Program-made: the position numbers and the translations under genes
Assembly (NCBI GenBank): GCA_045639125.1
Contig: JAZUCL010000010.1
Location: 36,213-100,212, forward strand
Length of the DNA: 64,000 nt
Direction of reading: 5' to 3'
Source: Eubacteriales bacterium
GTDB taxonomy: Bacteria > Bacillota > Clostridia > Oscillospirales > QAMX01
Part shown: positions 2,709-59,030 of the stretch, piece after piece
How the letters are laid out: each line of letters opens with the position of its first letter
Numbering within the stretch: position 1 is the first letter of the stretch
The notes under the pieces: model-generated
Told to the model about the DNA's origin: nothing
What the model saw: only the letters and a program-made list of their open reading frames with translations
Databases searched by the model: none

Positions 2709-2773
2709 ATTATCATGTTATCGTATTAGCACGCTAAAGCAATAAATTTCCTGTCAGATAAGGAGCATAAATA

Positions 2774-27700: not shown

Positions 27701-28940
27701 TCAAACGATATACTAACTTATCCTCAGAATTAAGTTGCAAACGTGCCTGCTGTGCAAAGGCTCTACCTTTTGATGTCAAGGAGAGTTTTGCACTGCGATT
27801 ACCAGTATGTGCTTCGGTTGTGTCGTAGGTGGCACTTCCTCCACCCTCTCCATACAATCTCCAGTTCGCATCGGACTCAAAACTTGAGTTATTAACAATA
27901 TTTATTCCGGTTTCAAAACTACTATCAGTCTTTTCGCAAACAGAAATGTCATCAAACCAAACGCTTGTGCCTCTGTCGGCAAGTGTGGTTATGAATAACT
28001 TCATGGCAGGTACATATTGAGGTACTGTATACTCTACCTTATACTCACTCCACTGACTTGCTACTGTTCCTGTCTCGGCAGTCATGCTCTCAATTTCTGT
28101 GCCTATTTCGCCGCCACCTAAATATGTAAGGCCCTTAATTACAGGACGAGCATTTGCGGAAGTCGACATATAATTAAGACTAATTTCATAAGTCTTGCCA
28201 GGCGTTACAAAAATACCATCTTGGGAAAATCCTACATTATTCTCGCTTGGATTACCATTTGTGGCTGTAATCTTCATTGAACCATTGCCGACAGTTGAGT
28301 CGTACGATACAGTACCATAGCCATTAGAACTCAGTGCCCACATGGAAGCATCTGAATCAAATTCGCCATTCTTTATATGGTTGCCTTCTACCAATGTAGG
28401 ACCTTGTATAGAAATAGAATCTATCCATACAGTTGCGTCAACATTACCGCTTGAGAAAGCAACTTCAATGAATGTGGCGGTAGGTGCGGCAGTGTATACG
28501 AGCGTCAATTCATTCCAAGTATTAATTGAAAACGACTGGTTAGCACTTGCACTCATAGTTGCATCAAGACAAGTTGCTCCGTTATAAGACGTTGCTGAAA
28601 TCATTGGATTTGCCGATGAATCGCTCACCTTAACATTTGCACGGATGGTGTATGTCTCACCACCAATGGCAGGAATATACCTTTGACGTACTACAGAAGA
28701 AACACCCTCCAATTTAAGTGAAGCAGTACCTGAATAAGTTACGCTGTCATCAAGAGACGCATTGCCCGACACTTTTATCCAACCCACTGGCATACCATCT
28801 CCTACACCCTCAAAACTTGAGTTTGCAGGTGTTGTTGAGTTGAACATTGACGATATTGTAACTATACCAAGTGATAATGCTGCCAACATTAGTACAATTA
28901 GTGCCGTTTTTGTAATTCTCTTTTTGAAAATTTTCATCAT
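24720..28940 (-). CDS. Secreted multidomain glycan-binding or glycan-active protein with no SLH anchor. Signal peptide, 4 CBM4/9/22-like jelly-roll modules, a ~615-aa aromatic-rich central domain of unassigned family, and a C-terminal CBM-like module.
   Basis: The N-terminus MMKIFKKRITKTALIVLMLAALSLG is signal-like. Modules start with N-[GS]-x-F-E...W and end with (V/L)W(I/F)DD(I/M)(S/T), as in CBM_4_9-type domains. The central region is rich in W/Y and is near-identical to its paralog. Confidence 0.7.
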   Translation of the reverse strand: MMKIFKKRITKTALIVLMLAALSLGIVTISSMFNSTTPANSSFEGVGDGMPVGWIKVSGNASLDDSVTYSGTASLKLEGVSSVVRQRYIPAIGGETYTIRANVKVSDSSANPMISATSYNGATCLDATMSASANQSFSINTWNELTLVYTAAPTATFIEVAFSSGNVDATVWIDSISIQGPTLVEGNHIKNGEFDSDASMWALSSNGYGTVSYDSTVGNGSMKITATNGNPSENNVGFSQDGIFVTPGKTYEISLNYMSTSANARPVIKGLTYLGGGEIGTEIESMTAETGTVASQWSEYKVEYTVPQYVPAMKLFITTLADRGTSVWFDDISVCEKTDSSFETGINIVNNSSFESDANWRLYGEGGGSATYDTTEAHTGNRSAKLSLTSKGRAFAQQARLQLNSEDKLVYRLSAWYRAVDVDESPYIRVNWNDADGAGIASTSVYVEKDEPKWVRLTYEVMPPDGAESVTIYPDIEATSGTLWFDDITFGPVTVPMTMTGSVRTPYNFDFENSSAWTFSASGVGSSARYDRNEKCGGNQSLRLSVSDDTQKVTATQFNVAATGARTVELAVNYKTANMVGNPYLKFMWYDKNDNFISSFSKTLVPSTEWTKGQMEIESTPMGAVKCAIILGIENGAGTVWFDDMTLGQYLTDADGHKHYVTNVVDITESFYAPEDDDPTNDDPQEFWNLFVPAKERATEVPNLWTEPFFRTAFFGNTGGQERGFALNAAPTVIKDDEALPVIEGSLGMSATGMPAKVIDPSIVGRPIMSPHTGYTDTYAPRREFDYVRLNYLPNYVMTGNEYFSTRAKELLTYLDYSQWKEGGRNAFVEDYYTSDPNAENKYVPRLEWRGAFTIFDWIWKDVPGYTWTYHEGDHHTNSLNVTSLVRAYELFGDEKYLDMAREFVYYQFPRYGFHTGEWNGQKYYWTEYSPTGLSVGNNVTDAVDNVVAHCGSAATMVGYYEKDPVLREQLLEFGRGCLWFLVREYSFDRRFWYDSAEFVAENWRKNVSHEASCIGEGALNAAYLYKAGVDISAALEAWEDIYREYPFTFGNFQNTMFLRMVKVYDGTPAAGAVLPFTTFFTPTSGDLTAVRFSDTIPEYGFEIPTELNIRFSRVTPPDSMTDDWHVDPDKDVVYTVTPAQLAKGIEFPFDVKCGEIYRATYELKVIDDPRFNREDVEDTNSEVTAWRIDEENNATFVNLTTGNSILLSENGATKPIAYDTTINSRNCLSYGSQLEFRFDREMASEFVDSPAPMVSAYLPTESWRGIEAEKYIYPAYSMAGSITNGVTFYPDYQSPSGGAFFVSLDDSVDFDFEVPLSNTEYTVDVLFNKARSRGVVDMLFNDIKQGETQNLYLPSSTWVAVCEWKSMGTVSLNQGVNKLSFTVVDKNPIGSTNPAFSEIVLTPIK
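24730..27236. repeat. Copy A of a ~2.5-kb high-identity direct repeat (partner 30237-32737)
   Basis: Base-by-base comparison shows long identical runs. Shadow ORFs recur at offset +5507 (24860/30367, 25549/31056) and then +5501 (26300/31801, 26714/32215, 27025/32526), which implies an in-frame 6-nt indel. Confidence 0.85.
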
Positions 28941-29341: not shown

Positions 29342-32300
29342 CTATCTGCCAAGCAGAGTACAGATATTATGGAATACATTTGCTACTTCGCCACGAGAAG
29401 CATTTACACGTGGTGCAACAGAAGCCAAGTCGCTTAACTGCATTACGCCCTGTCCAAGTGCCCAGTTAAGAGCGGGCTTAGCGTAATCAGATACGGAGGA
29501 TGCATCGGTGTAGCCTGAAAGGTTACTGCTTGCATTTGCCTTTGATGCAAGTCCGCAATGGATTGCGTAGCGGTACATAATTGCCGCCAACTGCTCACGA
29601 GAAATTGGCTCATTTGGCATAAACTTGCCGTTTGTATATCCCTCTACAATGCCGTTTGCAGATGCCCATTTGGTAGCGGTTGCATACCATGCGTCATTTG
29701 CTACATCGCTAAAGGATATTCCCTGTGATACAGTAGGTTGACCTGCAAGACGATAAAGGATTGTTACTATCATTCCACGTGTGATTGTTGCGTCAGGACT
29801 AAACATATTGTTGCCTGTGCCATTCATCAGACCTGTAGATGATACGTAAACTACATCGTCAAAGTAACGGTAGGTTGAGTCTACATCATAGAATGTAGGT
29901 GCAAATACATCTACATCAGCCAAATTTGGTTTATCCTCTTCCTCGTTAAGACGTACTGTTACTTCAACAGAATCTCTGAAACTTTCATCGAAAGATGTTG
30001 CTGTAATTACTGTCTTACCGTTTGAAATTGCAGTTACAACACCTAAATCATTTACAGTTGCAACACTTGGGTTGCTACTTGTCCAAGTTATTGGATAAAC
30101 GTATGGATTATCAGTAACAATATAGGTGTCAAGACGCAACTTTGTATTTGTAGAACGCATTACTCTGTCGTGTTCTGCTATTACAAACTCATCATCATTT
30201 ATAGTTTCAATCTTTTCATCAGTCGTTTGGCCAACAGGTGTCAAAACAATTTCAGAAAAACCAGGATTGGTATTGCCTAAAGGATTTTTACCAACTACTG
30301 CAAATGATAACTTATTTATACCTTGGATAAGGGATACAGTACCCATAGATTTCCATTCGCATACTGCTACCCAAGTACTCGAAGGACGATACAAGTTTTG
30401 GGTTTCGCCTTGCTTAACATCGTTAATATACATATCAACGACACCACGGGAACGAGCCTTGTTGAATAATACATCAACTGTATATTCCGTATTGGATGAC
30501 GGTATCTCAAAATCGAAATCAGCCGAAGCACCAAGTGAAACAAATAAAGCACCACCTGATGGGGACTGATAATCAGGATAATAAGTAACGCCGTTTGTAA
30601 TACTACCTGCCATAGAATATGCAGGATATATGTATTTCTCAGCCTCAATACCTCTCCAAGATTCTGTCGGCAAATAAGCACTTACCATAGGTGCAGGAGA
30701 ATCAACGAACTCAGATGCCATCTCACGGTCAAATCTAAACTCAAGTTGTGAGCCGTATGACAGACAGTTTCTTGTATTGATTGTCGTATCATAAGCAATA
30801 GGCTTTGTAGCACCGTTTTCACTCAACAAAATTGAATTACCTGATGTAAGGTTAACAAATGTTGCATTGTTTTCCTCATCAATTCTCCATGCGGTAACTT
30901 CAGAGTTAGTATCCTCAACATCTTCACGATTGAAACTAGGATCATCGATTACCTTCAGTTCGTAAGTTGCCCTGAATATTTCACCACACTTAACATCAAA
31001 TGGAATTTCAACACCCGCTGCAAGTTGGGCAGGAGTAACTGTGTAGACAACATCTTTGTCAGGATCTACGTGCCAATCATCTGTCGTATTGTCAGGAGGT
31101 GTAACACGAGAGAAACGAATATTCAACTCTGTGGGAATCTCAAATCCGTACTCAGGTATTGTGTCAGAGAAACGAACTGCCGTCAAATCTGCAGTTGTTG
31201 GTGTGAAGAATGTAGTGAATGGAAGAACTGCACCTGCTGCAGGTGTTCCGTCATAAACCTTAACCATTCTGAGGTACATTGCACATTGCATACTGCCAAA
31301 AGTGAAAGGATATTCTTTGTAAATATCTTCCCATACCTCAAGTGCTGCACTAATGTCAACACCTGCTTTGTAGAGATATGCCGCCATGAGTGCACCCTCA
31401 CCTAAACAACTGTTTTCATGGGAAACAGCCTTACGCTTATTCTGCTCCACGTACTCAGCGCCGTCATACCAAAATCTTCTGTCAAATGAATACTCACGAA
31501 CAAGGTACCACAGACAACCACGACCAAATTCAAGTAATTGTTCACGAAGTACAGGATCTTTCTCGTAGTAGCCTACCATTGTTGCTGCTGAAGCGCAGTG
31601 TGCAATAGCATTGTCAATTGCGTCAGTAGTTGGGTTGCCATCACCTGTGGGGTTATACTCTGTCCAGTAGTACTTTTGACCATTCCATTCACCTGAATGG
31701 AAACCGTAACGTGGGAACTGGTAGTAAACAAACTCTCGAGCCATTTCAAAGTATTTTTCATCACCGAACAATTCATAGGCTCTTATAAGGGATGTAACAT
31801 TCAAAGAGTTGGTATGGTGATCGCCTTCATGGTATGTCCACGTATATCCCGGCACGTCTTTCCATATCCAGTCAAAGATAGTGAACGCACCACGCCATTC
31901 AAGGCGAGGAACATATTTGTTTGCAGCATTTGGATCGCTCGTGTAATAGTCTTCAACGAAGGCATTTCTACCGCCCTCTTTCCACTGTGAGTAATCCAAA
32001 TATGTGAGAAGTTCTTTTGCTCTCGTTGAAAAATACTCATTACCGGTCATAACGTAATTGGGCAGATAATTGAGTCTAATATAGTCAAACTCTCTACGTG
32101 GAGCATACGTATCGGTATAGCTTCCATGAGGAGACATTATCGGTCTGCCTACGATTGATGGGTCAATAACTTTTGTAGCCTTGCCGGTAGATGACATACC
32201 AAGAGATCCAATAACTACAGGCATCGTTTCATCATCTTTAATAACTGATGGAGCAGCATTAAGTGCAAAGCCTCTTTCCTGACCGCCTGTATTTCCAAAG

Positions 32301-35300
32301 AACGCTGTGCGGAAGAAAGGTTCTGTCCAGATGTTGGGGACTTCAGTTGCAAGAGGCTTAGCAGGAACAAACATAGCCCAGTACGCTTGTGGATCGTCGT
32401 ATGTGGGATCATCATCTTCCGGAGCGTAAAAACTTTCGGTAATATCAACTACATTTGTTACGTAGTGCTTATGACCATCAGCATCAGTAAGATACTGACC
32501 TAAAGTCATATCGTCAAACCATACTGTGCCGGCACCATTTTCAACGCCAAGGATAATAGCACACTTTGCAGTACCCTTAGGAGATAATGTCTCAATTTGT
32601 CCCTCTGTCCATTCATCAGATGGAGCTAAAGTCTTGCTGAAAGAAGAAATGAAGTTGTCATTTTTATCATACCACATAAACTTCAAGTATGGATTTCCTA
32701 CCATATTTGCTGTCTTGTAGTTAACTATAAGTTTAATTGTATTATTCTCAGTAGAATTAATATTAAACTGAGTAGCAGTTGCAGAATCTGTTTCAGATGC
32801 CGTAGTCAACTTAAGAGACTTGTTGCCCTTGTATGCATCTGAATCAAATGACGCTTCACTGCCATCACCACGTGTTTCAAGTTCCCAATAAGAACTTGCA
32901 TTTGTACTTTCTTCAAAATCTATGTCGTTGAATGGGTGACTCTTGCCGGTCATTGTCATAGGAACAGTAACCGTTCCAAAAGTTATGTCATCGAACCATA
33001 ATGTACCGGAAGTTGCTTCAATGTCGGGATAGACCTGTACGGTTTTTGCACCAACAGGAGACATTGCTTCCCAAGTTACACGAACCCACTCAGGCTCATC
33101 TTTTTCTATATATACACTTGTACCACCAAGGCTAGCATTATTATCGCCATACCAGTTGACACGAATCTGTGGTTTTGCGTCACCGGGAATTGCACGATAC
33201 CATGCACTCAAGCGATATACTGACTGATCATCAGAATTAAGTTGCATGCCTGATTGCTGTGCAAAGGCTCTACCTTTTGATGTCAAGGAGAGTTTTGCAC
33301 TGCGTTTGCCTGTATGTGCTTGGGTTGTGTCGTAGGTAGCAGTTCCTCCAGCGTTGCTGTACATTCTCCAGATCGAATTGGACTCAAAACTTGAGTTCAT
33401 AACAATATTTTCAAGTTTTTCTTTTACACTAATTGAGTCGATCCAAATTTCCTTATCCGCTGTTGAATTACCAACAAATTCTACTTTTAATGCAGTTGCA
33501 TTTACAGGGGCAGATTCAACTACCGCCAAACTCGTCCATTCTGTTTCAGATGATGTTTTTAGATTTGCATTAAAAGCATCACCAACGGGAGTATCACCAC
33601 AGTACCACCTAAGTTGCATATATGGTGCTGTGTCGGAGGAAAGAACAAATGCCTTTATCTCATAGTCTTTGCCGCCGATTACAGGAATACCACTTTGTGT
33701 AATAGATGCATTGCCTGCAAGTTTTGCACTGCTTGTGCCTTTTTGTGCCTTTGTTGTGTCAATAGTAGCGTTGCCACTCCAACCGGAAACATCTCCTTCA
33801 AAATCACCGTTTACAGTAAGGTTTTTGGAAATGTCAAGAACAAGTGGTGCTCCAGACACAGATACTTCGTCAATCCAAGTAGACTTTCCGGATTCTGCTG
33901 CACCTACAAATGAAAGGGACATTGCGGTTGCATCGGAAGGTGCTGATAATTTACCGGAAATTTTCTGCCATTCATTAGATGCTGATTTTGCTGCGATCTG
34001 GAAAGTATCCTTTCCGCCAATACTAAGTAATGTGTCGCCTTTGTACCACTGTACGTTTACAGAAGGTACATCTGTGCTGTCAGTACAAACATACGCACTG
34101 ATATTATACTCATAACCGCCAAGAATTGTAATTCTTGACTGTTTTGCAATAACAGCATTATTTCCGCTTGCTGTCATTTTAAGGGATGCTATTCCCTTAC
34201 GGTAAGAATTAGTAACTGCTGTGCCTGTTCCGTTTTCAATATTCCAGCCGATTGCACTTGCAGAATCTGTGGGGTTAATCTCTGTCTTTGGCTCAAAAGA
34301 ACCATTTGCAACGAGATTCTTTTCATTCAAAGCAACAAGACTTACAGAGTCAATCCATAATGCCTTGCCACTTTCCGTGCAGTTGGTAGGAATAGAGAAT
34401 CTCATTTCCACTATACCTGCAGGAATTTCGAGTACACCTGAAAATTTTGTCCAACTTGTAGGTGCAGCATCAAACTTAACAAGGACACCACCAGTTTGCT
34501 TACCATTGGAATCATAATAGTAGTAGTCAATTTCAGGTGCTGCTCCGGGATCGTCTGTAAAGAAGTAAGCAGAAACTTCATACTGCTTGCCGGCCTCAAC
34601 AGGTATTCTTGCATTATTTGCTGTCTGAACTGTAGCATTACCTGTCGCTTTAAGGGCTTTTCCACCGCTGTGTACATTGGTACTGTCAGCGGAGATTGCA
34701 CCTAAAGCCGCTTTAGTCCAGCCAAGAGTGCCGTCCTCGAAATTACCGTTAAATACACGGTTGCTGTCTGTGTATTCTTCCACCAAAACAGAGTCAAGCC
34801 ATACTGCCTTATCACTTGCTGTGTTGTTGGAAGGAATAGATAATCTCACTGCAACTGTACCTTCAGGAATTTCGATTAAACCTGACAGTTTTGTCCAACC
34901 ACTTGTCGGTGCAGTCTCAAACTTAACAACGGTACCACCACCAGCAGAAGTTCCATCGCTCTTATAACGGTAGTAGTCAATTTGAGGTTTTGATTCGGGG
35001 TTGTCTGTATAGAAGTATGCAGAAAATTCATACTTCTTGCCAGCCACAACAGATATTTTTGCATCCATCGCTGTCTGCGCTATAGCATTACCTGTCATCT
35101 TAAGGGATTTTTCACCGCTGTGTACATAGGTATTATCAGCGGTGGTTTTACCATTAGCCGCTTTAGTCCAACCCGTAGTTCCGTTCTCAAAACCGGGGTT
35201 TGTAACAGATGGTTCTACATCAGTTGCATACGCCGTAAGCGGAGCAAAAGACGAAAACGCATCGAGTGGTAGCATTGTAATTGTCATAGCAACACAAAGC

Positions 35301-35335
35301 ACCATTGCAAGTACGCGAGTGAGTGTTTTTTTCAT
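29342..35335 (-). CDS. S-layer-homology-anchored surface paralog. Signal peptide, 6 CBM4/9/22-like modules, the same central domain, a CBM-like module, a Big_2 Ig-like domain, and 3 SLH repeats.
   Basis: 1997 aa with signal-like MKKTLTRVLAMVLCVAMTITMLP. Big_2-like ITWTSSNPSVATVNDLGVVTAISNGKTVITAT. Three SLH repeats (FYDVD...TRGMIVTILYRLAG; FSDVANDAWY...SREQLAAIMYRYA; YTDASSVSDYAKPALNW...SRGEVANVFHNI). Confidence 0.8.
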   Translation of the reverse strand: MKKTLTRVLAMVLCVAMTITMLPLDAFSSFAPLTAYATDVEPSVTNPGFENGTTGWTKAANGKTTADNTYVHSGEKSLKMTGNAIAQTAMDAKISVVAGKKYEFSAYFYTDNPESKPQIDYYRYKSDGTSAGGGTVVKFETAPTSGWTKLSGLIEIPEGTVAVRLSIPSNNTASDKAVWLDSVLVEEYTDSNRVFNGNFEDGTLGWTKAALGAISADSTNVHSGGKALKATGNATVQTANNARIPVEAGKQYEVSAYFFTDDPGAAPEIDYYYYDSNGKQTGGVLVKFDAAPTSWTKFSGVLEIPAGIVEMRFSIPTNCTESGKALWIDSVSLVALNEKNLVANGSFEPKTEINPTDSASAIGWNIENGTGTAVTNSYRKGIASLKMTASGNNAVIAKQSRITILGGYEYNISAYVCTDSTDVPSVNVQWYKGDTLLSIGGKDTFQIAAKSASNEWQKISGKLSAPSDATAMSLSFVGAAESGKSTWIDEVSVSGAPLVLDISKNLTVNGDFEGDVSGWSGNATIDTTKAQKGTSSAKLAGNASITQSGIPVIGGKDYEIKAFVLSSDTAPYMQLRWYCGDTPVGDAFNANLKTSSETEWTSLAVVESAPVNATALKVEFVGNSTADKEIWIDSISVKEKLENIVMNSSFESNSIWRMYSNAGGTATYDTTQAHTGKRSAKLSLTSKGRAFAQQSGMQLNSDDQSVYRLSAWYRAIPGDAKPQIRVNWYGDNNASLGGTSVYIEKDEPEWVRVTWEAMSPVGAKTVQVYPDIEATSGTLWFDDITFGTVTVPMTMTGKSHPFNDIDFEESTNASSYWELETRGDGSEASFDSDAYKGNKSLKLTTASETDSATATQFNINSTENNTIKLIVNYKTANMVGNPYLKFMWYDKNDNFISSFSKTLAPSDEWTEGQIETLSPKGTAKCAIILGVENGAGTVWFDDMTLGQYLTDADGHKHYVTNVVDITESFYAPEDDDPTYDDPQAYWAMFVPAKPLATEVPNIWTEPFFRTAFFGNTGGQERGFALNAAPSVIKDDETMPVVIGSLGMSSTGKATKVIDPSIVGRPIMSPHGSYTDTYAPRREFDYIRLNYLPNYVMTGNEYFSTRAKELLTYLDYSQWKEGGRNAFVEDYYTSDPNAANKYVPRLEWRGAFTIFDWIWKDVPGYTWTYHEGDHHTNSLNVTSLIRAYELFGDEKYFEMAREFVYYQFPRYGFHSGEWNGQKYYWTEYNPTGDGNPTTDAIDNAIAHCASAATMVGYYEKDPVLREQLLEFGRGCLWYLVREYSFDRRFWYDGAEYVEQNKRKAVSHENSCLGEGALMAAYLYKAGVDISAALEVWEDIYKEYPFTFGSMQCAMYLRMVKVYDGTPAAGAVLPFTTFFTPTTADLTAVRFSDTIPEYGFEIPTELNIRFSRVTPPDNTTDDWHVDPDKDVVYTVTPAQLAAGVEIPFDVKCGEIFRATYELKVIDDPSFNREDVEDTNSEVTAWRIDEENNATFVNLTSGNSILLSENGATKPIAYDTTINTRNCLSYGSQLEFRFDREMASEFVDSPAPMVSAYLPTESWRGIEAEKYIYPAYSMAGSITNGVTYYPDYQSPSGGALFVSLGASADFDFEIPSSNTEYTVDVLFNKARSRGVVDMYINDVKQGETQNLYRPSSTWVAVCEWKSMGTVSLIQGINKLSFAVVGKNPLGNTNPGFSEIVLTPVGQTTDEKIETINDDEFVIAEHDRVMRSTNTKLRLDTYIVTDNPYVYPITWTSSNPSVATVNDLGVVTAISNGKTVITATSFDESFRDSVEVTVRLNEEEDKPNLADVDVFAPTFYDVDSTYRYFDDVVYVSSTGLMNGTGNNMFSPDATITRGMIVTILYRLAGQPTVSQGISFSDVANDAWYATATKWASANGIVEGYTNGKFMPNEPISREQLAAIMYRYAIHCGLASKANASSNLSGYTDASSVSDYAKPALNWALGQGVMQLSDLASVAPRVNASRGEVANVFHNICTLLGR
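30237..32737. repeat. Copy B of the ~2.5-kb direct repeat (partner 24730-27236)
   Basis: See copy A. A second, more diverged block of similarity lies at about 32946-33405 versus 27441-27905. Confidence 0.85.
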
Positions 35336-35627: not shown

Positions 35628-36713
35628 TCAGGCATGAATTATTTCAAAATTCTGCTCGTTATAGATATAATTCATACGCTCATTTGTATTTTCAAATATT
35701 GAGTATGCAAGAAGCAATTTTGCATAGGTGGTTTCCATTGTGTATCCGTATACAAAATTTATCTTTTTCCCGTTTGCTTCATGCTTTGCTATTATATCAG
35801 AAGTTTCGTATATCTCACCCTTTAGTATTGCCGGTGCAATAAAAGCATCTGTCTTTCTTTTCGATTTGGCACAAGCGTCTATCATGGCAAGAATTGAGTC
35901 ACTGCTATAGTGTGAGTTGTCCTTCGTTTTTTCACAGCAAGCAGTACCTGAATGATATGTGCCGTGGAGGACGGCTGAATATTTATCGTAATTAAATGAC
36001 TCGTAATTTATACCCACATAGGGAAAAATCATTAACACGCATTGAGAAAGTGTCCAATCTGCAAATATATCAATTCCAGTTTTAATCTTTTGCGGTGGGT
36101 ACATTATATTTATTTTGGCAAAGATGTCCTTGTAGTTTTTATTTGAAATGTCAGTAATATTGATTGCTCCGACACTTGTAAAGTCCTCAGAATAGATTTT
36201 GCATTGTTCAAGTCGTGATGCAAGATGCAGATACATCTGCTTATCAGATACATTTTCGTATACCGCGTATACATTAGCAGGGATTTTTCTGCAAATACAT
36301 TCTACCGCACATTTGAAATTTGCATCACCATTTGATTTTTGTGACTGTAATCTGTCGTTGGCAGATACAAAAAACACAGGAATTTTCGTGCCGCTCAAAA
36401 TCATTGAAAACAGTGCAGCAGAATACGCCAATGTATCTGTTCCGTGGGCAAAAATTATACCGTCAAAATTTTCATTCGCCACTTCTTTGCGATACACTCG
36501 AATTATCTCGTTTAGATTTTCTATCGTCATGTTTTCGCTCAATATATTTAGGTTTTCACTCAACTTTATATCTACCTTGTTGGCGTATACTGAATTTGAG
36601 TTGTAGAAGTTTTCCGTTAGCAGTGTGCCTGCATTTTCGTCTATTGATTTTGTACCGTCTTTATTCAGTTTACAGCAAATAGTCCCACCGACTAAAATCA
36701 ACAATATCCGCAT
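35628..36713 (-). CDS. Asparaginase/glutaminase-family (type I asparaginase / GatD-like) amidohydrolase
   Basis: 361 aa. N-terminal nucleophile motif ILVGGTICC (GGT), second motif IFAHGTDTLAYSAA (HGTDT), candidate Lys in EQCKIYSEDFTS. AGGAGG RBS. Last gene of the gat operon. Confidence 0.7.
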   Translation of the reverse strand: MRILLILVGGTICCKLNKDGTKSIDENAGTLLTENFYNSNSVYANKVDIKLSENLNILSENMTIENLNEIIRVYRKEVANENFDGIIFAHGTDTLAYSAALFSMILSGTKIPVFFVSANDRLQSQKSNGDANFKCAVECICRKIPANVYAVYENVSDKQMYLHLASRLEQCKIYSEDFTSVGAINITDISNKNYKDIFAKINIMYPPQKIKTGIDIFADWTLSQCVLMIFPYVGINYESFNYDKYSAVLHGTYHSGTACCEKTKDNSHYSSDSILAMIDACAKSKRKTDAFIAPAILKGEIYETSDIIAKHEANGKKINFVYGYTMETTYAKLLLAYSIFENTNERMNYIYNEQNFEIIHA

Positions 36714-36732
36714 ATAGTCCTCCTATTGACTA

Positions 36733-36763
36733 CTGCCGAAAGAGAGCAGTTCTCCTTCGGCAG
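36733..36763 (-). other. Strong stem-loop between gatB and the asparaginase-family gene
   Basis: 13-bp stem with one mismatch (CTGCCGAAAGAGA / TCTCCTTCGGCAG) and a 5-nt loop. No U-tract. The RBS AGGAGG follows 8 nt later on the minus strand. Confidence 0.6.
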
Positions 36764-36771
36764 TTATACGT

Positions 36772-38193
36772 TTACAAATTAACTTTTTTTTCCAAGATTT
36801 CCTTAATAACGGATGGTTCGCCAACACCTTTAAGTTCTTTCATGCAAGCACCAAATAATGCCTGTATAGCCTTGACTTTACCATTTTTGTAGTCCTCAAC
36901 CGCCTGTGCATTGTCTAAAAGCACCTTGTCTATGACATTTTCAATGGTAGATAAGTCTACCTTCTTGTCAAAGCCCTGCTCCTTACAATATGCGATTGGG
37001 TCAACTCCGTTTTCAACTACGGCAATTAAAATCTTCTTACCTGCACCACGGTTAATTTCTCCGCTATCCACCATTTTAATGACAGATGCAAGTTCCTGTG
37101 CTGTAATTTTAAGGTCGTTGAATGTCTTTTTGTCCTTACGAAGAATACCTGCACAGTCGGTCAGTATCCAGCCGGCAGCATCCTTTGCATTACAGCCCAG
37201 AGATACTGTATCATCAAGGAGTTTGCTAATATTTTGGTTTGCAATAAGCATATCAATTTCCTTATCGGATATGCCTGCCATTCGATACTCCTCTGCCTTC
37301 TCATCTACTGCAACAGGTTTATTTGCACGGATTTCTTCAAGCCATTCATCGTCAATTATAATAGGCATTAAGTTTGCGTCAGGGAAGTATCGGTAGTCTG
37401 CCTCTGTTTCCTTGTTTCGCATAGCGAATGTCTTGCCGCTCACATCGTCAAAACGTCTTGTTTCTTGAACAAGTTCTTCCGTTTCGTACTCAATAGCGTC
37501 AATGTGTCGCTGTGCCTCGTAGCGAATTGCACGTTCAATAGCCTCAAATGAACTCATGTTCTTAATCTCTGTACGAACACCATATTCACTACTGCCCTGT
37601 GGTCGAACAGAAAGGTTTACGTCACAACGCATTGCTCCCTCTTCACATTCGGAAATACCGCCTGAGCGGAACATATTCTTTAGTTTGTTAAGGTATGATA
37701 ACACTTCTTCTGCACTGCGGAAGTCAGGCTGTGTAACAATTTCAATCAGAGGTACACTTGTGCGGTTGAAGTCAACAAGAGAGTGTTTTCCAACGTGTAC
37801 AAGTTTACCAGCGTCTTCCTCCATGTGAATTTGCTTTATGCGAATATCTCGTGGGCCGTCAGATGTTTTAAGAGAAACGCAACCGTCTGTGCATATAGGG
37901 TGGTTTAACTGTGTAATCTGATACGCACAAGGAAGGTCGGGATAGTAGTAGTTCTTCTTGTCAAATGTAGTATACTTGTTGATGTTACAGTTGAGCATAA
38001 GACCTGCCGTAACTGCAAGTTCAACTACACGCTTGTTCATAACAGGAAGCATACCGGGCATACCGCTACAAGCAGGACAAACACAATCGTTTGGTTCATT
38101 TGCAGAGGAGTGACCACCGCAAGAACAGAAAATTTTCGATTTGGTATCTAACTCAACATGAGTTTCAAGACCTATAACTAATTCATAGTTCAT
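36772..38193 (-). CDS. gatB: Asp/Glu-tRNA amidotransferase subunit B
   Basis: 473 aa; IGLETHVELDTKSKIFC, YPDLP, C-terminal YqeY-like tail. Canonical length. Confidence 0.9.
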   Translation of the reverse strand: MNYELVIGLETHVELDTKSKIFCSCGGHSSANEPNDCVCPACSGMPGMLPVMNKRVVELAVTAGLMLNCNINKYTTFDKKNYYYPDLPCAYQITQLNHPICTDGCVSLKTSDGPRDIRIKQIHMEEDAGKLVHVGKHSLVDFNRTSVPLIEIVTQPDFRSAEEVLSYLNKLKNMFRSGGISECEEGAMRCDVNLSVRPQGSSEYGVRTEIKNMSSFEAIERAIRYEAQRHIDAIEYETEELVQETRRFDDVSGKTFAMRNKETEADYRYFPDANLMPIIIDDEWLEEIRANKPVAVDEKAEEYRMAGISDKEIDMLIANQNISKLLDDTVSLGCNAKDAAGWILTDCAGILRKDKKTFNDLKITAQELASVIKMVDSGEINRGAGKKILIAVVENGVDPIAYCKEQGFDKKVDLSTIENVIDKVLLDNAQAVEDYKNGKVKAIQALFGACMKELKGVGEPSVIKEILEKKVNL

Positions 38194-38206: not shown

Positions 38207-39391
38207 TCACTTTTCTAAACTTGCGGCAAGACTTAGAAGTGTGCTTTCGGAAAAATGCTTACCCAACAACTGTACTCCACCACTTACGAGTGCCGGAACA
38301 CCGATAAGGTTTGCAACTGCCGTAAAGACGCTCTCGTCAAACACCTTACTAAATGCTGTGTGAATGTCGTATGCCTCGTATTTCGTATGACTACTGCACG
38401 GCATTAAAACAGCATCGTACTTACTCATCAGTTTTTCAAAGTTCTCCGCAATAACACGACGGACTTTAAGAGATTTCTGATAGCAATCTTTATAACGATT
38501 TTTCGACAACACATCTGAGCCGTATAAAATAACTGCTTTTGTCAGGAAGTTAAAGCCCTCGGTTCTTGTATTTACGTAAAGTTCGTCAATATTTCTGTAA
38601 TTTGCGGTACGATATCCAAACTTTACTCCGTCATAACGAGAGATATTGTTACACGTTTCAGCAGTCATAAGAATTTGCCAAGCGGTATTTGCATTGTCAA
38701 AGAAATCACATGAAATTTCTTCCACTACTACGCCTTTTTCTGCAAGACTCTTAGCATAAGCGGCAATTTTTTTCTTTGTTTCTTCGTCTGCTTTCTCTAC
38801 TAATTCTTTTACAATACAAACTCTCTTTTTGGAAATATCATTAGATATGGAGTAATCGTAAGACTCTGCCTTAAGGCTTGTGCCATCCTTATCGTCATGT
38901 CCTGCAATTACTGTCATTATCTTACTTATTTCCTGTGCATTTTTTGCATATACGCCAACTTGCTCACCGGAAGCCGCACAAGAGATAACTCCGTATCGAG
39001 AAACGGTACCATAGGTGGGCTTTAAGAAATCTACATTGGAGATAGCGGCCGCACGTCTTGGTGCACCATTCATATCTACGCCAAGTGCTCCCTCGACTTC
39101 GCCACTTGATACTAACTCGGCAGCCGCACCTTTAAGGTCATTTTCCTTTTCGCTATAGTAGGAGAACTCACCTACAAGGTCAAGACCAAACTCGCCTACG
39201 TCTGTTTTTCCGGAAATAGTGTAACCGCTGTTTTCAAGACGCACAACTGCCTCTGCACTAAACAGAGGTTTATAACCCTCTAAAATTCGTGAACCTGCAG
39301 TTGCAGTAACACCTTTAACGAGTAAAGTGTCGTCTACTGCAATATTACCTTTATCATTTAATTTTACTGTATAATATTTCACTTCAAACAC
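38207..39391 (-). CDS. GatA-like amidase-signature protein, shortened and lacking both catalytic serines (predicted pseudo-glutaminase)
   Basis: 394 aa versus ~485 for GatA. It aligns by eye to the AS signature: canonical GGSSGGS...GSDTGGSIRQPAA..KPTYG corresponds here to NDLKGAA...GVDMNGAPRRAAA..KPTYG. GTG start 1 nt after the aspS-gatC stop. Confidence 0.75.
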   Translation of the reverse strand: MFEVKYYTVKLNDKGNIAVDDTLLVKGVTATAGSRILEGYKPLFSAEAVVRLENSGYTISGKTDVGEFGLDLVGEFSYYSEKENDLKGAAAELVSSGEVEGALGVDMNGAPRRAAAISNVDFLKPTYGTVSRYGVISCAASGEQVGVYAKNAQEISKIMTVIAGHDDKDGTSLKAESYDYSISNDISKKRVCIVKELVEKADEETKKKIAAYAKSLAEKGVVVEEISCDFFDNANTAWQILMTAETCNNISRYDGVKFGYRTANYRNIDELYVNTRTEGFNFLTKAVILYGSDVLSKNRYKDCYQKSLKVRRVIAENFEKLMSKYDAVLMPCSSHTKYEAYDIHTAFSKVFDESVFTAVANLIGVPALVSGGVQLLGKHFSESTLLSLAASLEK

Positions 39392-39392
39392 C

Positions 39393-41462
39393 TCACTTTA
39401 CGAGTCTTGGAACCTGCCAACTGTCCTCACTGCGTTCAGGAGCACCTTCAAGAAGACTGTCACGGCTGAAAGGCTGTTTACGCTCATCTTCACGCAGTAC
39501 GTTGGTCATAGGCATAACGTGTACCATTTCTTCCACGTTTTCCGTATCTATACTCTTAAGTTTAGACTCGTGTTCACTCATAGTCTTGAAAATATCCTGC
39601 ATAACAGTCTCCTCACTCTCTGTTAAAGAGATTTGGTTTAACTGTTGGTCGTTGGAGAATGTTGCACGTTTCATCTGTGCCTTAGTTGCATTTGGAGTTG
39701 AACGACCTGCCAATGCATTCGTATTACCAAGAAGATGGACGTCCTCAAGTTGTTGGTTTGTAACTTCACTCGGTGCACCAAGAAGCAAGTCTTGTGCGTT
39801 ACCGTTGAGTGGGAATGCGATTATTTCGAGAATTTTTTCCTCATCGGTAAGAAGCATTACCATTCTGTCGATACCAGGTGCCATACCTGCGTGAGGCGGT
39901 GCACCAAACTGGAATGCAGTATAAAGAGCGTTGAATCGAGCCTTTAATTCGTCCTCGTTATATCCTGCAATAGCAAATGCCTTCTTCATAATATCAATGC
40001 TATGGTTTCTTACAGCACCAGATGCCAACTCAATACCATTACAAACAAGGTCATACTGGTACGCCAAAACTTCCGTAGGATCCTTTGTCAGAAGTGCTTC
40101 CATACCGCCTTGTGGCATTGAGAATGGGTTGTGGGTGAAAATCGTTTCACCTGTCTCCTCGTCAATCTCATACATTGGGAAATCTACCACGAAGCAGAAC
40201 TCAAAAGCATCATCTGTGATTAGGTTAAGTTGTTCTTTCCTTGCAAGCCATGTGCGGATAAGTCCTGCCTTTTTCTCTGTATCGTTTTTCTTATCGTCGC
40301 AGATGAAGAACAGAGTTTCCCCTTCCTTAACACCTGTAATCTCTTGAATTTCTATCTTTTGAGCATCAGTTAAAAACTTTGCAATAGGTCCTGCAAACAC
40401 ACCTTCTTTAAGAGTGATGTATCCAAGACCGCCAAGACCAACATCCTGAGATGTTGCATACTTGAGAGAGTCCTCAAAAAACTTCTTGGACTTACCTGTA
40501 CAATCAGCAACGATACCTCTTACAGGCTTTCCCTTAAACGCAGGGAATGCAACACCTGAGAAAAAGTCAGTAAGGTCGCAAATGAGAAGTGGGTTTCTAA
40601 GGTCAGGCTTATCTGAGCCGTATGTCATCATCGCATCTGCATAAGTGATACGGCGGAAAGGCTTTGGGGTTATCTTCTTATCTGAGAACGTCTTGAATGT
40701 GTCATAAATAACGTCCTCACATATATCAAGAACTTCTTCCTGAGTTGCAAATGCCATTTCAAAGTCAAGTTGATAGAACTCACCGGGTGAACGGTCAGCA
40801 CGTGCATCTTCATCTCTAAAGCATGGTGCAACTTGGAAATATCTGTCAAATCCAGACACCATAAGAAGTTGCTTAAACTGCTGAGGTGCTTGGGGCAACG
40901 CATAGAATTTTCCCGGATGTTTACGGCTTGGTACAAGGAAATCTCTTGCACCCTCCGGAGATGATGCAGACAAAATAGGTGTTTGCATTTCAAGGAAATT
41001 CTTATCCTCCATCTTATTACGAAGATGACGGATAATCTTTGAACGCATTACAAGATTGTTATGGTTTTTCGGGTTTCTAAGGTCAAGATAACGATACTTA
41101 AGACGAAGTTCGTCTTTGTTTGCTCTTGACGTTCTCACATCAAAAGGAAGCATATTGAGGCTCTTACCCAACACTTCAAGTTCAGTTGCCACAAGTTCAA
41201 CATTACCTGTATCAATTTTTGTGTTTACAGTTTCCTCGTCTCTTTTTTCAACAACACCGCTTACAGATATAACTGTTTCACGGTTTACATTTTTCAAAAG
41301 TTCTTCATTGTGTACAACAACCTGCGTTACACCTGTATAGTCACGCAAGTCGATGAATATGACACCGCCATGGTCACGAACAACTTCAACCCAACCTGCA
41401 AGTTGGACAGTTTTTCCGATATGCTCATCACGGATGTCATTGCAGAATAAAGTTCTATACAT
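39393..41462 (-). CDS. aspS: Aspartyl-tRNA synthetase (bacterial type with GAD insertion) fused in frame to a C-terminal GatC domain
   Basis: Start at ATG 41462 (MYRTLFCNDIRDEHIGK) after AGGAGG. Class-II motifs FRDED and GAPPHAGMAPGIDR. The last ~93 aa (39396-39674) read as GatC (VHVMPMTNVLREDE...APERSEDSWQVPRLV). No stop between the two parts. Confidence 0.85.
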   Translation of the reverse strand: MYRTLFCNDIRDEHIGKTVQLAGWVEVVRDHGGVIFIDLRDYTGVTQVVVHNEELLKNVNRETVISVSGVVEKRDEETVNTKIDTGNVELVATELEVLGKSLNMLPFDVRTSRANKDELRLKYRYLDLRNPKNHNNLVMRSKIIRHLRNKMEDKNFLEMQTPILSASSPEGARDFLVPSRKHPGKFYALPQAPQQFKQLLMVSGFDRYFQVAPCFRDEDARADRSPGEFYQLDFEMAFATQEEVLDICEDVIYDTFKTFSDKKITPKPFRRITYADAMMTYGSDKPDLRNPLLICDLTDFFSGVAFPAFKGKPVRGIVADCTGKSKKFFEDSLKYATSQDVGLGGLGYITLKEGVFAGPIAKFLTDAQKIEIQEITGVKEGETLFFICDDKKNDTEKKAGLIRTWLARKEQLNLITDDAFEFCFVVDFPMYEIDEETGETIFTHNPFSMPQGGMEALLTKDPTEVLAYQYDLVCNGIELASGAVRNHSIDIMKKAFAIAGYNEDELKARFNALYTAFQFGAPPHAGMAPGIDRMVMLLTDEEKILEIIAFPLNGNAQDLLLGAPSEVTNQQLEDVHLLGNTNALAGRSTPNATKAQMKRATFSNDQQLNQISLTESEETVMQDIFKTMSEHESKLKSIDTENVEEMVHVMPMTNVLREDERKQPFSRDSLLEGAPERSEDSWQVPRLVK

Positions 41463-41750
41463 ACCAAGTCCTCCTAAATATGCCAAAAAATATAAAAATC
41501 CCGAGAATACAAAACATATTCTCGGGACGAGCAAACAAAAATAAGCCCGCGGTGCCACCCGCATTGATACTTCAAAAGTATCCTCTTTAACTGTTTAATT
41601 GTTGATTATCGGAGTGTTGTCAAACTTACTACTCATCTCAAATGTGCTTTCAGTCCATGGCACATTCTCCCTAACAGACTTTCCAAAAAAGTTGAGTCTC
41701 CAACTACAAATAATACTAAAAGGATAACACTAATCGCTCTATTTGTCAAT
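41463..41750 (-). promoter_or_regulatory. T-box riboswitch leader of the aspS-gat operon
   Basis: Minus strand: T-box sequence AAUGCGGGUGGCACCGCGGG (41565-41547), then a terminator CCCGAGAAUA-7 nt-UAUUCUCGGG + U-run (41526-41490). The terminator's 5' arm can alternatively pair into the antiterminator. Upstream lie AGGGAGA and CUGAAAGC elements resembling the stem-I AG bulge and distal loop. Candidate promoter TTGACA 41749-41744. Confidence 0.8.
41490..41526 (-). terminator. T-box attenuator terminator
   Basis: 10-bp perfect stem (41500-41509 / 41517-41526) followed on the minus strand by AUUUUUAUAUUUUUU. Confidence 0.8.
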
Positions 41751-42775: not shown

Positions 42776-43690
42776 GTGAATGTAACGAACAATTCAAAAA
42801 ACTTCTCATTTACTGATATTTCTAACCACCCACTTGCTACACATATTACGCAAGCGGCTTCCCTTTCATTACTAAACGGCTATCCCGACAAAACATTTCG
42901 TCCTGACAATGCGGTTACAAGAGCCGAATTTGTCGCTATGACAAATCGTTGTCTTGGTATAAGTGGTTGTGCTACAGTACCATTTACCGATGTTCCCGAA
43001 GACGCATGGTATCACATCGAAGTTGAAAAGGCTTTGTCTATTGGATATATCCACGGCACTTCCAATACGACATTTTCACCCAACGATTATATAACTCGTG
43101 GTCAGGTAGCAACAATTCTTTGTCGTATAGTCGGCGGTAAATATACATTCTGTGGCTACCATGACGCAGAAAATGTACCTGCATGGATGAAAGATGGTCT
43201 ATGCTATGCGTGGACAAGTGGCGTGTTTTCCTCAATTTGCCAAACTGACAACCTGTTTTCCATTGATAAAATTATGACTCGTGGTGAGTGTGCGGCTGTC
43301 ATTACGGCATTTTATAAGTCCCTAAATCGCTTCCCTATCTTCTTGACGTTATGTGAAAAAAGTGATAAGGAGATATCTTTCGATTCCCCCTTTTATATCT
43401 ACTTTACCATTTCAGGTAAGAATCTTTTTTCTCACCTTCTTAAAAAATGTCAAGAGGATGTAGCCTTTAGCGAATTATCAGAGAGTGTACGTGTTGACTT
43501 ATGTGTATCAAATGACTTGACAGTTACCGACAAAGAGGTTTTTGAGGCCGACGAGAATTACGTCTATATTCGTCTTACTCTACGTCAGGTGTCAAAGGGA
43601 GATGCTTCTTTGGTCATTTCAATTAAGCCGACAGACACTAATACCTACAACGTATCCGACTCTCATCAAGCGTTAAACTTCAAATTCTAA
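42776..43690 (+). CDS. Protein with three N-terminal SLH repeats, no signal peptide, and a ~130-aa unknown C-terminal domain
   Basis: GTG start 4 nt after the upstream stop. The frame is closed by TAG at 42770-42772, so no longer N-terminus is possible. SLH repeats FTDISNHPLATH...TRAEFVAM, FTDVPEDAWYH...TRGQVATILCRIVG, YHDAENVPAWM...TRGECAAVITAFY. Confidence 0.7.
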   Translation: MNVTNNSKNFSFTDISNHPLATHITQAASLSLLNGYPDKTFRPDNAVTRAEFVAMTNRCLGISGCATVPFTDVPEDAWYHIEVEKALSIGYIHGTSNTTFSPNDYITRGQVATILCRIVGGKYTFCGYHDAENVPAWMKDGLCYAWTSGVFSSICQTDNLFSIDKIMTRGECAAVITAFYKSLNRFPIFLTLCEKSDKEISFDSPFYIYFTISGKNLFSHLLKKCQEDVAFSELSESVRVDLCVSNDLTVTDKEVFEADENYVYIRLTLRQVSKGDASLVISIKPTDTNTYNVSDSHQALNFKF

Positions 43691-49989: not shown

Positions 49990-51657
49990 TTATTTGCCTT
50001 TTGCGTAACTATCCTTCAAAGATACGCTTCTGTTAAATGTATTTTCATTCTTCGTATCCTTACAGAAGTATCCAAGTCGTACAAACTGGAATCTGTCTCC
50101 TGCATTTGCCTGTGCAAGTGCCGGCTCTGCTTTACAGTTTGTCAGATGAATAACAGAGTCAGGGTTAAGGAAATCGTCATACGTCTTATCCTCAGGAATA
50201 TCATTGACATTTTCAAGAGTAAAGAGTTTGTCGTACAAATCCACGTTAATATCAATAGCATGGGAAGCACTAACCCAATGAATTGTGCCCTTTACTTTTC
50301 TGCCGTCAGATGGCATACCACAACCTGATACAAGGTCAGCAGTACATATAATCTGTGCAATAGATCCGTCGGCGTTTTTCTCAACTCGCTGGCAATTAAC
50401 AATATACGAACCCATAAGACGTACTTCCTTACCGGGAGTCATTCGTTGGAATTTAGGTGGCGGTACTTCGGCAAAGTCGTCCTCCTCAATCCAAAGTTCT
50501 CTTGTAAATGGAAGTTCACGCACACCTGCATCAGGGTTTTCAGGATTGTTCGTTACGGAGAAATATTCTGTTTTATCCTCCGGGAAGTTTTCAATAACAA
50601 CCTTTATGGGTTTTGTAACTGCAATACGACGTAAAGCCGTTTTATTAAGTTCCTCACGGAGACAATGCTCAAGCAAACGAATATCAACGAGATTTTCACT
50701 TTTCGCAACGCCAACACGTCCCATAAAGTCGATAATAGACTCGGCAGTATAACCACGGCGGCGTAACGCACATAAGGTAGGCATACGAGGATCGTCCCAA
50801 CCGCTTACAAGTCCTGTTTCAACGAGTTTACGCAAGAAACGCTTTGACATTACAGTATGCGTCAAGTTAAGTCTTGCAAACTCAATCTGACGTGGGTGTG
50901 CATCTATACCACAGTAGGAACTGACTTTCTCAACAACCCAGTTATAAAGAGGTCTGTGATTTTCATATTCCAAAGAACACATCGAATGGGAGATGCCTTC
51001 AAGCATATCCTGTACAGGGTGTGCGTAGTCGTACATTGGGAAAATGCACCACTTCGTTCCCTGACGATGATGTTCAATATATCTGATACGATAAAATACC
51101 GGGTCACGCATATTGAAGTTGCCTGACGCAAGGTCAATTTTTGCACGGAGAGTATACTTACCCTCCGGAAACTCTCCCGCACGCATACGGCGGAATAAGT
51201 CAAGGGATTCTTCAATAGGACGGTCACGATAGGGAGAAATTGCAGGGTGAGTCAAGTCGCCACGATATTCACGAAACTGCTCAGGTGCAAGTTCACATAC
51301 ATACGCATCACCGTGGAGAATAAGTTGTTCTGCAAACTTGTAAGTTTCCTCAAAATAGTCAGAACCATAGAAAAATCTGTCGTCCCAGTCAAAGCCAAGC
51401 CAATGGATATCCTCTTTAATTGCATCTACAAACTCTGTGTCCTCTTTTGCAGGGTTTGTATCGTCCATACGCAAATTACATACACCACCGTACTTCTTGG
51501 CGGTCAAAAAGTCGATGAGCAATGCCTTGCAATGTCCGATATGGAGGTAGCCGTTAGGCTCAGGCGGAAAACGGGTGTGTATCTTCTTTACTCTACCCTC
51601 AGCAATATCCTCATCTATTAACTCATATATAAAATTAGAATTCATTTCTTCAGACAT
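49990..51657 (-). CDS. glnS: Glutaminyl-tRNA synthetase
   Basis: Start at ATG 51657 after AAAGGA. TRFPPEPNGYLHIGH (HIGH) and VMSKR (KMSKS-type). The overall GlnRS pattern includes a C-terminal beta-barrel anticodon domain. Confidence 0.85.
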   Translation of the reverse strand: MSEEMNSNFIYELIDEDIAEGRVKKIHTRFPPEPNGYLHIGHCKALLIDFLTAKKYGGVCNLRMDDTNPAKEDTEFVDAIKEDIHWLGFDWDDRFFYGSDYFEETYKFAEQLILHGDAYVCELAPEQFREYRGDLTHPAISPYRDRPIEESLDLFRRMRAGEFPEGKYTLRAKIDLASGNFNMRDPVFYRIRYIEHHRQGTKWCIFPMYDYAHPVQDMLEGISHSMCSLEYENHRPLYNWVVEKVSSYCGIDAHPRQIEFARLNLTHTVMSKRFLRKLVETGLVSGWDDPRMPTLCALRRRGYTAESIIDFMGRVGVAKSENLVDIRLLEHCLREELNKTALRRIAVTKPIKVVIENFPEDKTEYFSVTNNPENPDAGVRELPFTRELWIEEDDFAEVPPPKFQRMTPGKEVRLMGSYIVNCQRVEKNADGSIAQIICTADLVSGCGMPSDGRKVKGTIHWVSASHAIDINVDLYDKLFTLENVNDIPEDKTYDDFLNPDSVIHLTNCKAEPALAQANAGDRFQFVRLGYFCKDTKNENTFNRSVSLKDSYAKGK

Positions 51658-51690
51658 AATAATACATCCTTTCACCAATTAAACTGGCAC

Positions 51691-53328: not shown

Positions 53329-53368
53329 AAAATACCCTCCGAGCAAATATTCTTATATCTGAATTTTT

Positions 53369-59003: not shown

Positions 59004-59030
59004 AATAATATCCTCCAAATATTTTTTAAT

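Follow-up and report, generated by a model that had tools for sequence, protein, structure and literature searches.

A GatA homologue without the catalytic triad is conserved in the gatA slot of an aspS-gatCAB operon with a predicted T-box leader in gut Clostridia

Introduction

The amidotransferase GatCAB is the textbook case of a tRNA-dependent kinase/amidase that is coupled to a glutaminase through an ammonia tunnel. Transamidation has been described as requiring a glutaminase subunit, either GatA or GatD (PMC2330236). Here we analyze a stretch of 64,000 nucleotides (the window) from a Eubacteriales bacterium of the Oscillospirales (GenBank assembly GCA_045639125.1, contig JAZUCL010000010.1, positions 36,213 to 100,212 of the forward strand), in which the gatA slot of an aspS-gatCAB operon is occupied by a gene for a GatA homologue that has lost all three catalytic residues of the amidase signature. 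We refer to this protein as pseudo-GatA (pGatA), and to homologues without the catalytic motifs as dead GatA.

The solved bacterial GatA proteins (S. aureus 2df4, A. aeolicus 3h0l and T. maritima 3al0) have in common with pGatA the overall fold, the position between gatC and gatB, and the core KPTYG...SRYG. pGatA differs from them in the absence of Lys79, cis-Ser154, Ser178, Arg358 and Asp425 (S. aureus numbering) and of ~55 N-terminal residues, and in a score below the GatA equivalog cut-off. At the level of the operon, a T-box(Asn)-controlled aspS-gatCAB operon of Clostridium acetobutylicum was reportedly described by Saad and colleagues in 2012 (J Biol Chem 287:20382; cited in PMC4206432). 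Both operons combine an AspRS gene and gatCAB behind a tRNAAsn-reading T-box, an arrangement that appears dedicated to tRNA-dependent asparagine synthesis. In contrast to that operon, GatC is fused to the C-terminus of AspRS in the window; the GatA of the window is dead, which may be a second difference.

Loss of a glutaminase active site with retention of the protein has a precedent in carbamoyl-phosphate synthetase I of ureotelic vertebrates, which keeps a glutaminase domain without nucleophile as a structural element and uses free ammonia. Its fold (class I glutamine amidotransferase) and its reaction are unrelated to those of pGatA, and the analogy is one of evolutionary route only. Within the amidase-signature fold, plant Toc64 contains an inactive amidase domain, Tse8 of P. 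aeruginosa is a GatA mimic that engages the transamidosome, and AtzE has a small partner that we take to be GatC-like. The title of the AtzE/AtzG structure (6c62) names a vestigial small partner subunit, and a preprint presents Tse8 as targeting bacterial protein synthesis (bioRxiv 10.1101/733030). All three proteins have the fold of pGatA; none of them is a resident subunit in the gatA slot of a gatC-gatA-gatB operon.

Results

pGatA has lost the glutaminase active site

pGatA matched the amidase profile PF01425 with 187.8 bits (gathering cut-off 27), residues 17-386 aligning to profile positions 52-445 of 445 and the N-terminal ~51 positions being absent. The closest model was the GatA equivalog TIGR00132, with 267.4 bits and thus below its cut-off of 481.1. 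Identity to solved GatA proteins was ~30% over the amidase core. Residue equivalences were obtained from HMMER alignments to five solved GatA chains, which were mutually consistent, and are given in the numbering of S. aureus GatA (2df4_A).

The Ser-cisSer-Lys triad is completely missing. An earlier reading of the letters alone, without database searches (the sequence-only reading), had proposed that the nucleophile is replaced by Ala110 and that the cis-Ser motif GGSSGGS is lost. Both proposals were confirmed: Ala110 stands at the position of Ser178 in the alignments to all five chains, and GGSS, including cis-Ser154, lies within a 7-residue deletion between K87 and G88. The suggestion that the Lys of LLVKGV may be the catalytic Lys did not hold. 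This residue, K26, aligns to a position that varies and is Glu in A. aeolicus; Lys79 corresponds to Asp20, with IAVKDN reading IAVDDT. Thus, the whole triad is gone and not the serines alone. Glutamine binding is affected as well: Arg358 and Asp425, which we take to be the ligands of the glutamine alpha-carboxylate and alpha-amino groups in S. aureus GatA as reportedly assigned by Nakamura and colleagues in 2006, are replaced, both at unambiguously aligned positions, by Val287 (within a gap-free alignment block) and Ser354. The flanking KPTYG, D106 and R112 are retained, as had been noted from the letters.

About 55 N-terminal residues of canonical GatA are absent from pGatA, in agreement with the previous estimate of ~50. 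The open reading frame (ORF) indeed cannot be extended, as the TGA stop of aspS-gatC (39393-39395) lies one base 5' of it. The real start is likely the second GTG (V4, 39380-39382), 8 nt after GAGG. The resulting product of 391 aa has the length of the identical NCBI-sourced protein P0001.

pGatA is maintained as an intact protein with a predicted GatA fold

A protein search returned >120 clusters of about 394 aa with 73-83% identity to pGatA. A genome scan returned 80 loci from distinct species-level metagenome-assembled genomes, and 81 orthologous sequences were compared. Most of these genomes come from the guts of ruminants and other animals, under the labels Acutalibacteraceae, Oscillospiraceae or Clostridia. 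All 81 orthologues were of near-equal length and free of internal stops and frameshifts, and the order aspS-gatC, pGatA, gatB was kept in 80/80 fetched loci. The copy in the window is neither strain-specific nor accompanied by degraded orthologues.

The altered active site recurs across this set, with one qualification. The GGSS deletion was present in 81/81 orthologues, and the Lys79 position was occupied by Asp in 80 and by Glu once. Arg358, an Arg in 97% of canonical representatives, was replaced by Val in 79/81; Asp425, an Asp in 98% of canonical representatives, was replaced by Ser in 72/81. The sequence-only reading had proposed recurrence of both the GGSSGGS loss and the Ala codon as a check. 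While the former is universal, Ala was found at the nucleophile position in only 45 orthologues, with Ser in 28 and Thr in 8. Such free drift would be expected of a site that no longer performs chemistry.

The ratio of nonsynonymous to synonymous substitution rates (dN/dS), calculated pairwise by the Nei-Gojobori method, was 0.11-0.14 for pGatA, compared to 0.06-0.07 for aspS-gatC and 0.06-0.08 for gatB. Note that synonymous sites are near saturation, making these values rough, though purifying selection is still clear. The AlphaFold2 model of pGatA was predicted with high confidence (predicted local distance difference test 96; predicted TM-score 0.94). Its best Foldseek matches were the GatA chains of GatCAB complexes, with TMq values of 0.91-0.92 and root-mean-square deviations of 2.2-2.9 A. 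The proposal of a conserved non-catalytic role rather than decay, made from the intact ORF and its tight junction, is thus supported by the 81 intact orthologues, their dN/dS and the invariant gene order, with respect to conservation; the non-catalytic role itself is an inference.

To define which parts of the protein are kept, we compared alignment columns between 64 canonical and 58 dead GatA representatives. Lost in dead GatA are the catalytic Lys, GGSSGGS, the T, G and S of DTGGS, the P of RQP, R358 and D425. Columns of the core fold are kept, for example KPTYG, SRYG, D166, D169, E245, R252, D254, R276 and G291. Within the pGatA clade, former pocket positions have been re-fixed to D20, G66, D71, N108, F122, W238, L283 and V287.

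Dead GatA homologues occur beyond this clade

Searching the 50%-identity representatives exhaustively with HMMER gave a list of 150 proteins, of which the 132 longer than 340 aa were classified. All three motifs were present in 64, both Lys and GGSSGG were missing in 58, and 10 were mixed. There are at least 58 further dead GatA-like clusters, comprising N-truncated forms like pGatA as well as full-length forms. In a rough neighbour-joining tree calculated with the motif columns excluded, ~39 dead sequences grouped together, including nearly all truncated ones, and the other dead sequences were scattered among canonical GatAs. This distribution suggests several independent inactivations of GatA.

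The gene context was examined for eight dead clusters. In every examined locus the dead gene directly followed gatC, which in one case (L166) was an 89-aa GatC-sized ORF with no Pfam match. The order aspS, gatC, dead gatA, gatB was found at L081 and L084/85, and gatC, dead gatA, gatB at L082 and L168/169. At L167, gatC and dead gatA are followed by mnmA. In L083 (gatC, dead gatA) and L166 (Logan SRR33769981 contig; ligA, GatC-sized ORF, dead gatA at 1600-3033) the downstream gene is cut off. Thus, gatB follows dead gatA in four of these loci. No neighbouring amidohydrolase was present at the examined loci of the eight clusters. Upstream genes were considered as partners and rejected, being a glycosyltransferase (L168) and LigA (L166).

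The GatA of L166 is full-length, with Lys changed to Ala and Ser to Ala. Its gene order, ligA, GatC-sized ORF, gatA, is presumably the housekeeping gatCAB position of Firmicutes. This position hints at lineages whose sole GatCAB contains a dead GatA. In the source annotations, dead GatA proteins are named 'hypothetical', 'amidase family protein' or 'GatA'.

The operon appears to be dedicated to Asn-tRNAAsn synthesis

The pGatA gene occupies the gatA slot of the operon; the label 'paralog', used in the sequence-only reading, is unproven. The upstream gene encodes AspRS fused to GatC, with the Pfam domains tRNA_anti-codon, tRNA-synt_2, GAD and GatC (residues 647-717). It starts with the ATG at 41462 (Met35 of the longest ORF), with a ribosome-binding site and the T-box leader located 5' of Met35, and the match of the fusion protein to the NCBIfam aspS model NF001750 (741 bits) begins at residue 35. 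The first 34 codons of the longest ORF are leader RNA, the T-box lying inside the 5' end of that ORF. AspRS-GatC fusion proteins of about 723 aa are also represented by NF009460 (bifunctional AspRS/amidotransferase subunit C). However, the window protein scored 457 bits against a cut-off of 1379 and falls outside that equivalog; its fusion may have arisen independently. In relatives such as L081 (50% identity) and L084, aspS and gatC are separate genes. GatB is full-length and canonical, with 562 bits in the NCBIfam model NF004012 (cut-off 338). The spacer behind gatB (36714-36771, minus strand, 58 nt) contains an 8-bp hairpin, CTGCCGAA...TTCGGCAG, without a T run, followed by AGGAGG and ATG. 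Instead of terminating transcription, this hairpin could act in the processing or stability of the RNA.

The leader 5' of aspS-gatC matched the T-box model RF00230 with 47.3 bits (E 2.9e-9) and full model coverage, the gathering score being 93. A search at the gathering threshold gave no match; the leader appeared when an E-value threshold was applied to the short intergenic stretch. It contains the T-box sequence GGGUGGCACCGCG and ends in a terminator hairpin. Among orthologous leaders the T-box motif was found in 63/64, and that of L081 exceeded the gathering score with 124.5 bits. Apart from two misaligned rows, the aligned leaders listed have the specifier AAC followed by a purine (A/G) on the 3' side of the Stem I loop, directly before the closing stem; AAC is conserved across them, whereas the preceding triplet is variable. 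T-box(AAC) elements also precede aspS in the distant loci L081, L084, L088 and L097. The specifier region reads GACAAC in the window and GGGAAC in most orthologues, the latter with overlapping GAA and AAC. We take the same overlapping arrangement to be present in the 'two-codon' T-box of C. acetobutylicum.

GlnRS is encoded 10 kb from the operon (TIGR00440, 655 bits), adjoining GluRS. Given these two enzymes in the same window, the amidotransferase is not needed for Gln-tRNAGln, only for Asn. Together with the T-box specifier, this gene content suggests that the operon is a dedicated Asn-tRNAAsn synthesis module.

An ammonia-dependent amidotransferase is the favoured explanation

We propose, with a probability of about 0.5, that pGatA is a pseudoenzyme with a scaffold function, and that the nitrogen donor of the amidotransferase is free ammonia. 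According to this model, pGatA would fold but not hydrolyse glutamine and would be retained since assembly of GatB requires a GatA-GatC scaffold, and AspRS-GatC, pGatA and GatB would form an asparagine transamidosome. The T-box riboswitch would sense uncharged tRNAAsn and turn the operon on. AspRS would then mischarge tRNAAsn with Asp, and GatB would phosphorylate the Asp side chain and subsequently amidate it. The amide nitrogen would be provided by free ammonia, entering through the remodelled former active site and the tunnel.

With a GatA unable to hydrolyse glutamine, free ammonia is the most likely source of the amide nitrogen. Ammonia is abundant in hindgut and rumen. Many dead-GatA operons have no other amidohydrolase nearby. 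HisH, encoded in the same window, keeps its Cys-His-Glu triad, indicating that the loss is specific to GatA and that glutamine amidotransfer as such has not been abandoned. As to feasibility, yeast GatFAB can transamidate independently of its glutaminase when given 20 mM NH4Cl, and NH4Cl improves the performance of some mutants with an impaired glutaminase (PMC4027206).

Several points weigh against this proposal. It presupposes that free ammonia arrives at GatB efficiently at physiological concentrations. pGatA has evolved ~1.8x faster than its operon partners, which fits a relaxed structural role and equally fits reduced importance. A second active GatA, AsnRS or Asn synthetase may be encoded elsewhere in the genome, and Clostridia do carry redundant GatCAB and AspRS copies (PMC4206432). 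Finally, about half of the close orthologous operons have an adjacent asparaginase-like gene, a possible real ammonia source.

An asparaginase-like neighbour is a candidate ammonia source

The gene behind gatB encodes a divergent protein of the asparaginase/GatD superfamily. We regard it as a candidate accessory source of ammonia and a putative member of the system. According to this alternative, which we consider possible though improbable, the protein would generate the ammonia for GatB, as archaeal GatD does in its own complex, and pGatA would only hold the complex together. The system would then resemble archaeal GatDE in combining an asparaginase-fold ammonia generator with a GatB/GatE-type kinase. 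Unlike GatDE, it keeps a GatA-like subunit and GatC.

The association of the gene with the operon is partial. It follows gatB in 34 of the 66 evaluable species, in 23 on the same strand and in 11 inverted. For the other 32, the fetched flanks (about 2-6.6 kb 3' of gatB) do not contain it, and neither does any of the sampled distant dead-GatA operons. Relatives at 31-39% identity stand beside aspS/gatCAB in three other orders, upstream in L088/89 and L097 and after aspS in L144. However, L097 and L144 carry a fully canonical GatA, so the gene is not restricted to dead GatA and its association is independent of GatA death. Moreover, the Asn-regulated unit does not include it in L088 and L097, where it lies 5' of the T-box. 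Nor is the family exclusive to gat operons: most metagenome relatives (28-38% identity), and most members of the wider family with the signature 'LSEN...YHSGT', have no gat genes nearby.

The best PDB sequence match of the protein is GatD (2d6f, 9e-13), with which it has the 'LSENM' motif and HGTDT in common. Thr11 and HGTDT (Thr92, Asp93) are invariant in the family, and dN/dS is about 0.12-0.14. In contrast, the Thr-Lys-Asp triad of asparaginases and GatD is incomplete: Arg167 stands at the position of the catalytic Lys, and nearly all relatives likewise lack a Lys there, having Arg, His or some other residue (30 homologues and metagenome loci). PF00710, covering the N-terminal domain, was the only model passed (88 bits, cut-off 22.5). 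Scores remained below the curated cut-offs of the type I L-asparaginase model TIGR00519 (99 versus 260 bits) and of the GatD models TIGR02153 (75 versus 324) and NF003217 (81 versus 310). The match starts at position 77 of NF003217 or 65 of TIGR02153; the extra N-terminal region of GatD is absent. A fold search gave no preference for GatD, the predicted model being no closer to GatD (TMq 0.65) than to archaeal asparaginases (0.70).

A doubtful extension of this alternative is a four-part amidotransferase, in which the dead GatA is retained and the Lys-less asparaginase-like protein feeds GatB. This would be an independent re-invention, in bacteria, of the archaeal GatD-GatE logic on a GatCAB chassis.

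Within the asparaginase/GatD superfamily, the asparaginase-like protein falls into a large branch that appears to be uncharacterised. This branch has the motifs GGTIC, LSEN(M/L), HGTDT and (L/I)H..YHSGT and occurs in gut, freshwater and other metagenomes. Where the gene is missing, we looked for an alternative amidohydrolase after gatB. In 13 species (L012, L018, L022, L027, L030, L034, L036, L040, L041, L046, L054, L062 and L065) the next gene, directly after gatB, encodes a protein of 384-395 aa that, judged by its H..EH and CCACCAPH motifs, is probably an AlaX-like tRNA-editing protein and not an amidase. These neighbours suggest a tRNA-quality-control neighbourhood.

Other explanations for a dead GatA

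A canonical gatA or a complete gatCAB elsewhere in the genome might supply the glutaminase activity or do the actual work, leaving the dead GatA of the operon in a spare, regulatory or competing role. Clostridia can have additional copies of AspRS and GatCAB, as cited above, and an AspRS under tRNAAsn-only control (T-box AAC) suggests that a second housekeeping AspRS may exist. We nevertheless regard this explanation as unlikely. No second amidase-signature gene was found among the examined ORFs of the window (at least 150 aa in the 64 kb, and all of at least 60 aa in 34-44 kb), and none was found in tblastn screens of the flanks of the 80 loci (E 1e-10, best matches only). The operon as a whole is under strong purifying selection and its T-box would respond to uncharged tRNAAsn, both of which suggest that the module itself makes Asn-tRNAAsn. 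The presumably housekeeping gene order around the dead GatA of L166 also speaks against this explanation.

A new catalytic activity of pGatA, using other residues in the remodelled pocket, is very improbable. The re-fixed positions D20, D71, N108, F122 and W238 are invariant, and R112, R113, S131 and R132 are kept. However, the former nucleophile position varies freely among orthologues, and the replacements differ between dead lineages, suggesting no single new conserved active site. In addition, no amidase-signature chemistry is known that does without the Ser-cisSer-Lys triad (PMC2330236). Finally, a plain pseudogene before decay, which the lost catalytic residues, truncated N-terminus and faster evolution might have indicated, is refuted by the 81 intact species-level orthologues under purifying selection, the >120 near-full-length homologue clusters and the confidently predicted fold.

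Other features of the window

The positions of the features are listed in Table 1. Genes for aminoacyl-tRNA synthetases are numerous in the window. Two giant proteins are encoded directly downstream of the operon. The 1406-aa protein contains CBM_4_9 carbohydrate-binding modules; the 1997-aa protein, read by eye only, has similar internal repeats and an SLH-like C-terminus. Together with the SLH-domain protein encoded upstream, these are probably cell-surface glycan-binding proteins. A SCIFF radical-SAM maturase gene is adjoined by the ORF of a six-Cys precursor peptide (58860-59018), with the sequence ...GGCGECQASCQSACKTSCTVANQKCENKK.

Table 1. Positions of the operon, of the altered active-site codons and of other features in the window
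Feature	Position	Strand	Remarks
T-box leader, Asn (AAC) specifier	41520..41715	minus	5' of aspS-gatC; RF00230
Terminator hairpin of T-box leader	41498..41528	minus	14-bp stem, then T run; terminator scan; overlaps 3' end of T-box match
AspRS-GatC fusion gene (aspS-gatC)	39393..41462	minus	longest ORF 39393..41564, 723 codons
GatC domain of AspRS-GatC	about 39414-39626	minus	Pfam GatC
Dead GatA homologue (pGatA)	38207..39391	minus	394 aa; probably 391 aa from GTG at 39382
Asp20 codon GAC	39332..39334	minus	at catalytic Lys79 position; alignment to 2df4_A
K87/G88 junction	39128..39133	minus	7-residue deletion site, removes GGSS of GGSSGGS including cis-Ser154
Ala110 codon GCA	39062..39064	minus	at nucleophile Ser178 position
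Val287 codon	38531..38533	minus	at Arg358 position; gap-free alignment block with 2df4_A
Ser354 codon	38330..38332	minus	at Asp425 position; unambiguous alignment to 2df4_A
gatB	36772..38193	minus	473 codons; full-length, canonical; GatB_N and GatB_Yqey domains
Divergent asparaginase/GatD-superfamily gene	35628..36713	minus	361 codons, 58 nt after gatB; PF00710
1406-aa giant protein	24720-28940	minus	downstream of operon
1997-aa giant protein	29342-35335	minus	downstream of operon
SLH-domain protein	42776-43690	plus	upstream of operon
GlnRS	49990-51678	minus	TIGR00440
GluRS	51691-53346	minus	tandem with GlnRS
LeuRS	11902-14304		
HisRS-like protein, probably HisZ	2774-3952		heads his operon running to 9694
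SCIFF radical-SAM maturase and six-Cys precursor peptide gene	57493-59018	minus	TIGR03974, 686 bits

Discussion

The components of the system and the pathway are known. A GatCAB with a conserved pseudoenzyme GatA is an undescribed variant as far as we found: searches of the literature, with incomplete coverage, gave no account of a gatCAB operon whose own GatA lacks the triad. More than 80 species of a gut Clostridia clade and dozens of other clusters keep GatA under selection without the glutaminase machinery. This implies an amidotransferase that would run in vivo on free ammonia, as we favour, or on a different ammonia-generating partner.

These operons may serve as a natural experiment on the roles of GatA beyond glutamine hydrolysis, namely scaffolding, tunnel formation and tRNA gating. 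They also reveal a systematic annotation problem, as 'hypothetical protein', 'amidase family protein' and 'GatA' are all in use as names for dead proteins. The finding further bears on metabolic reconstructions for gut and rumen bacteria, with regard to how asparagine is made and nitrogen is used.

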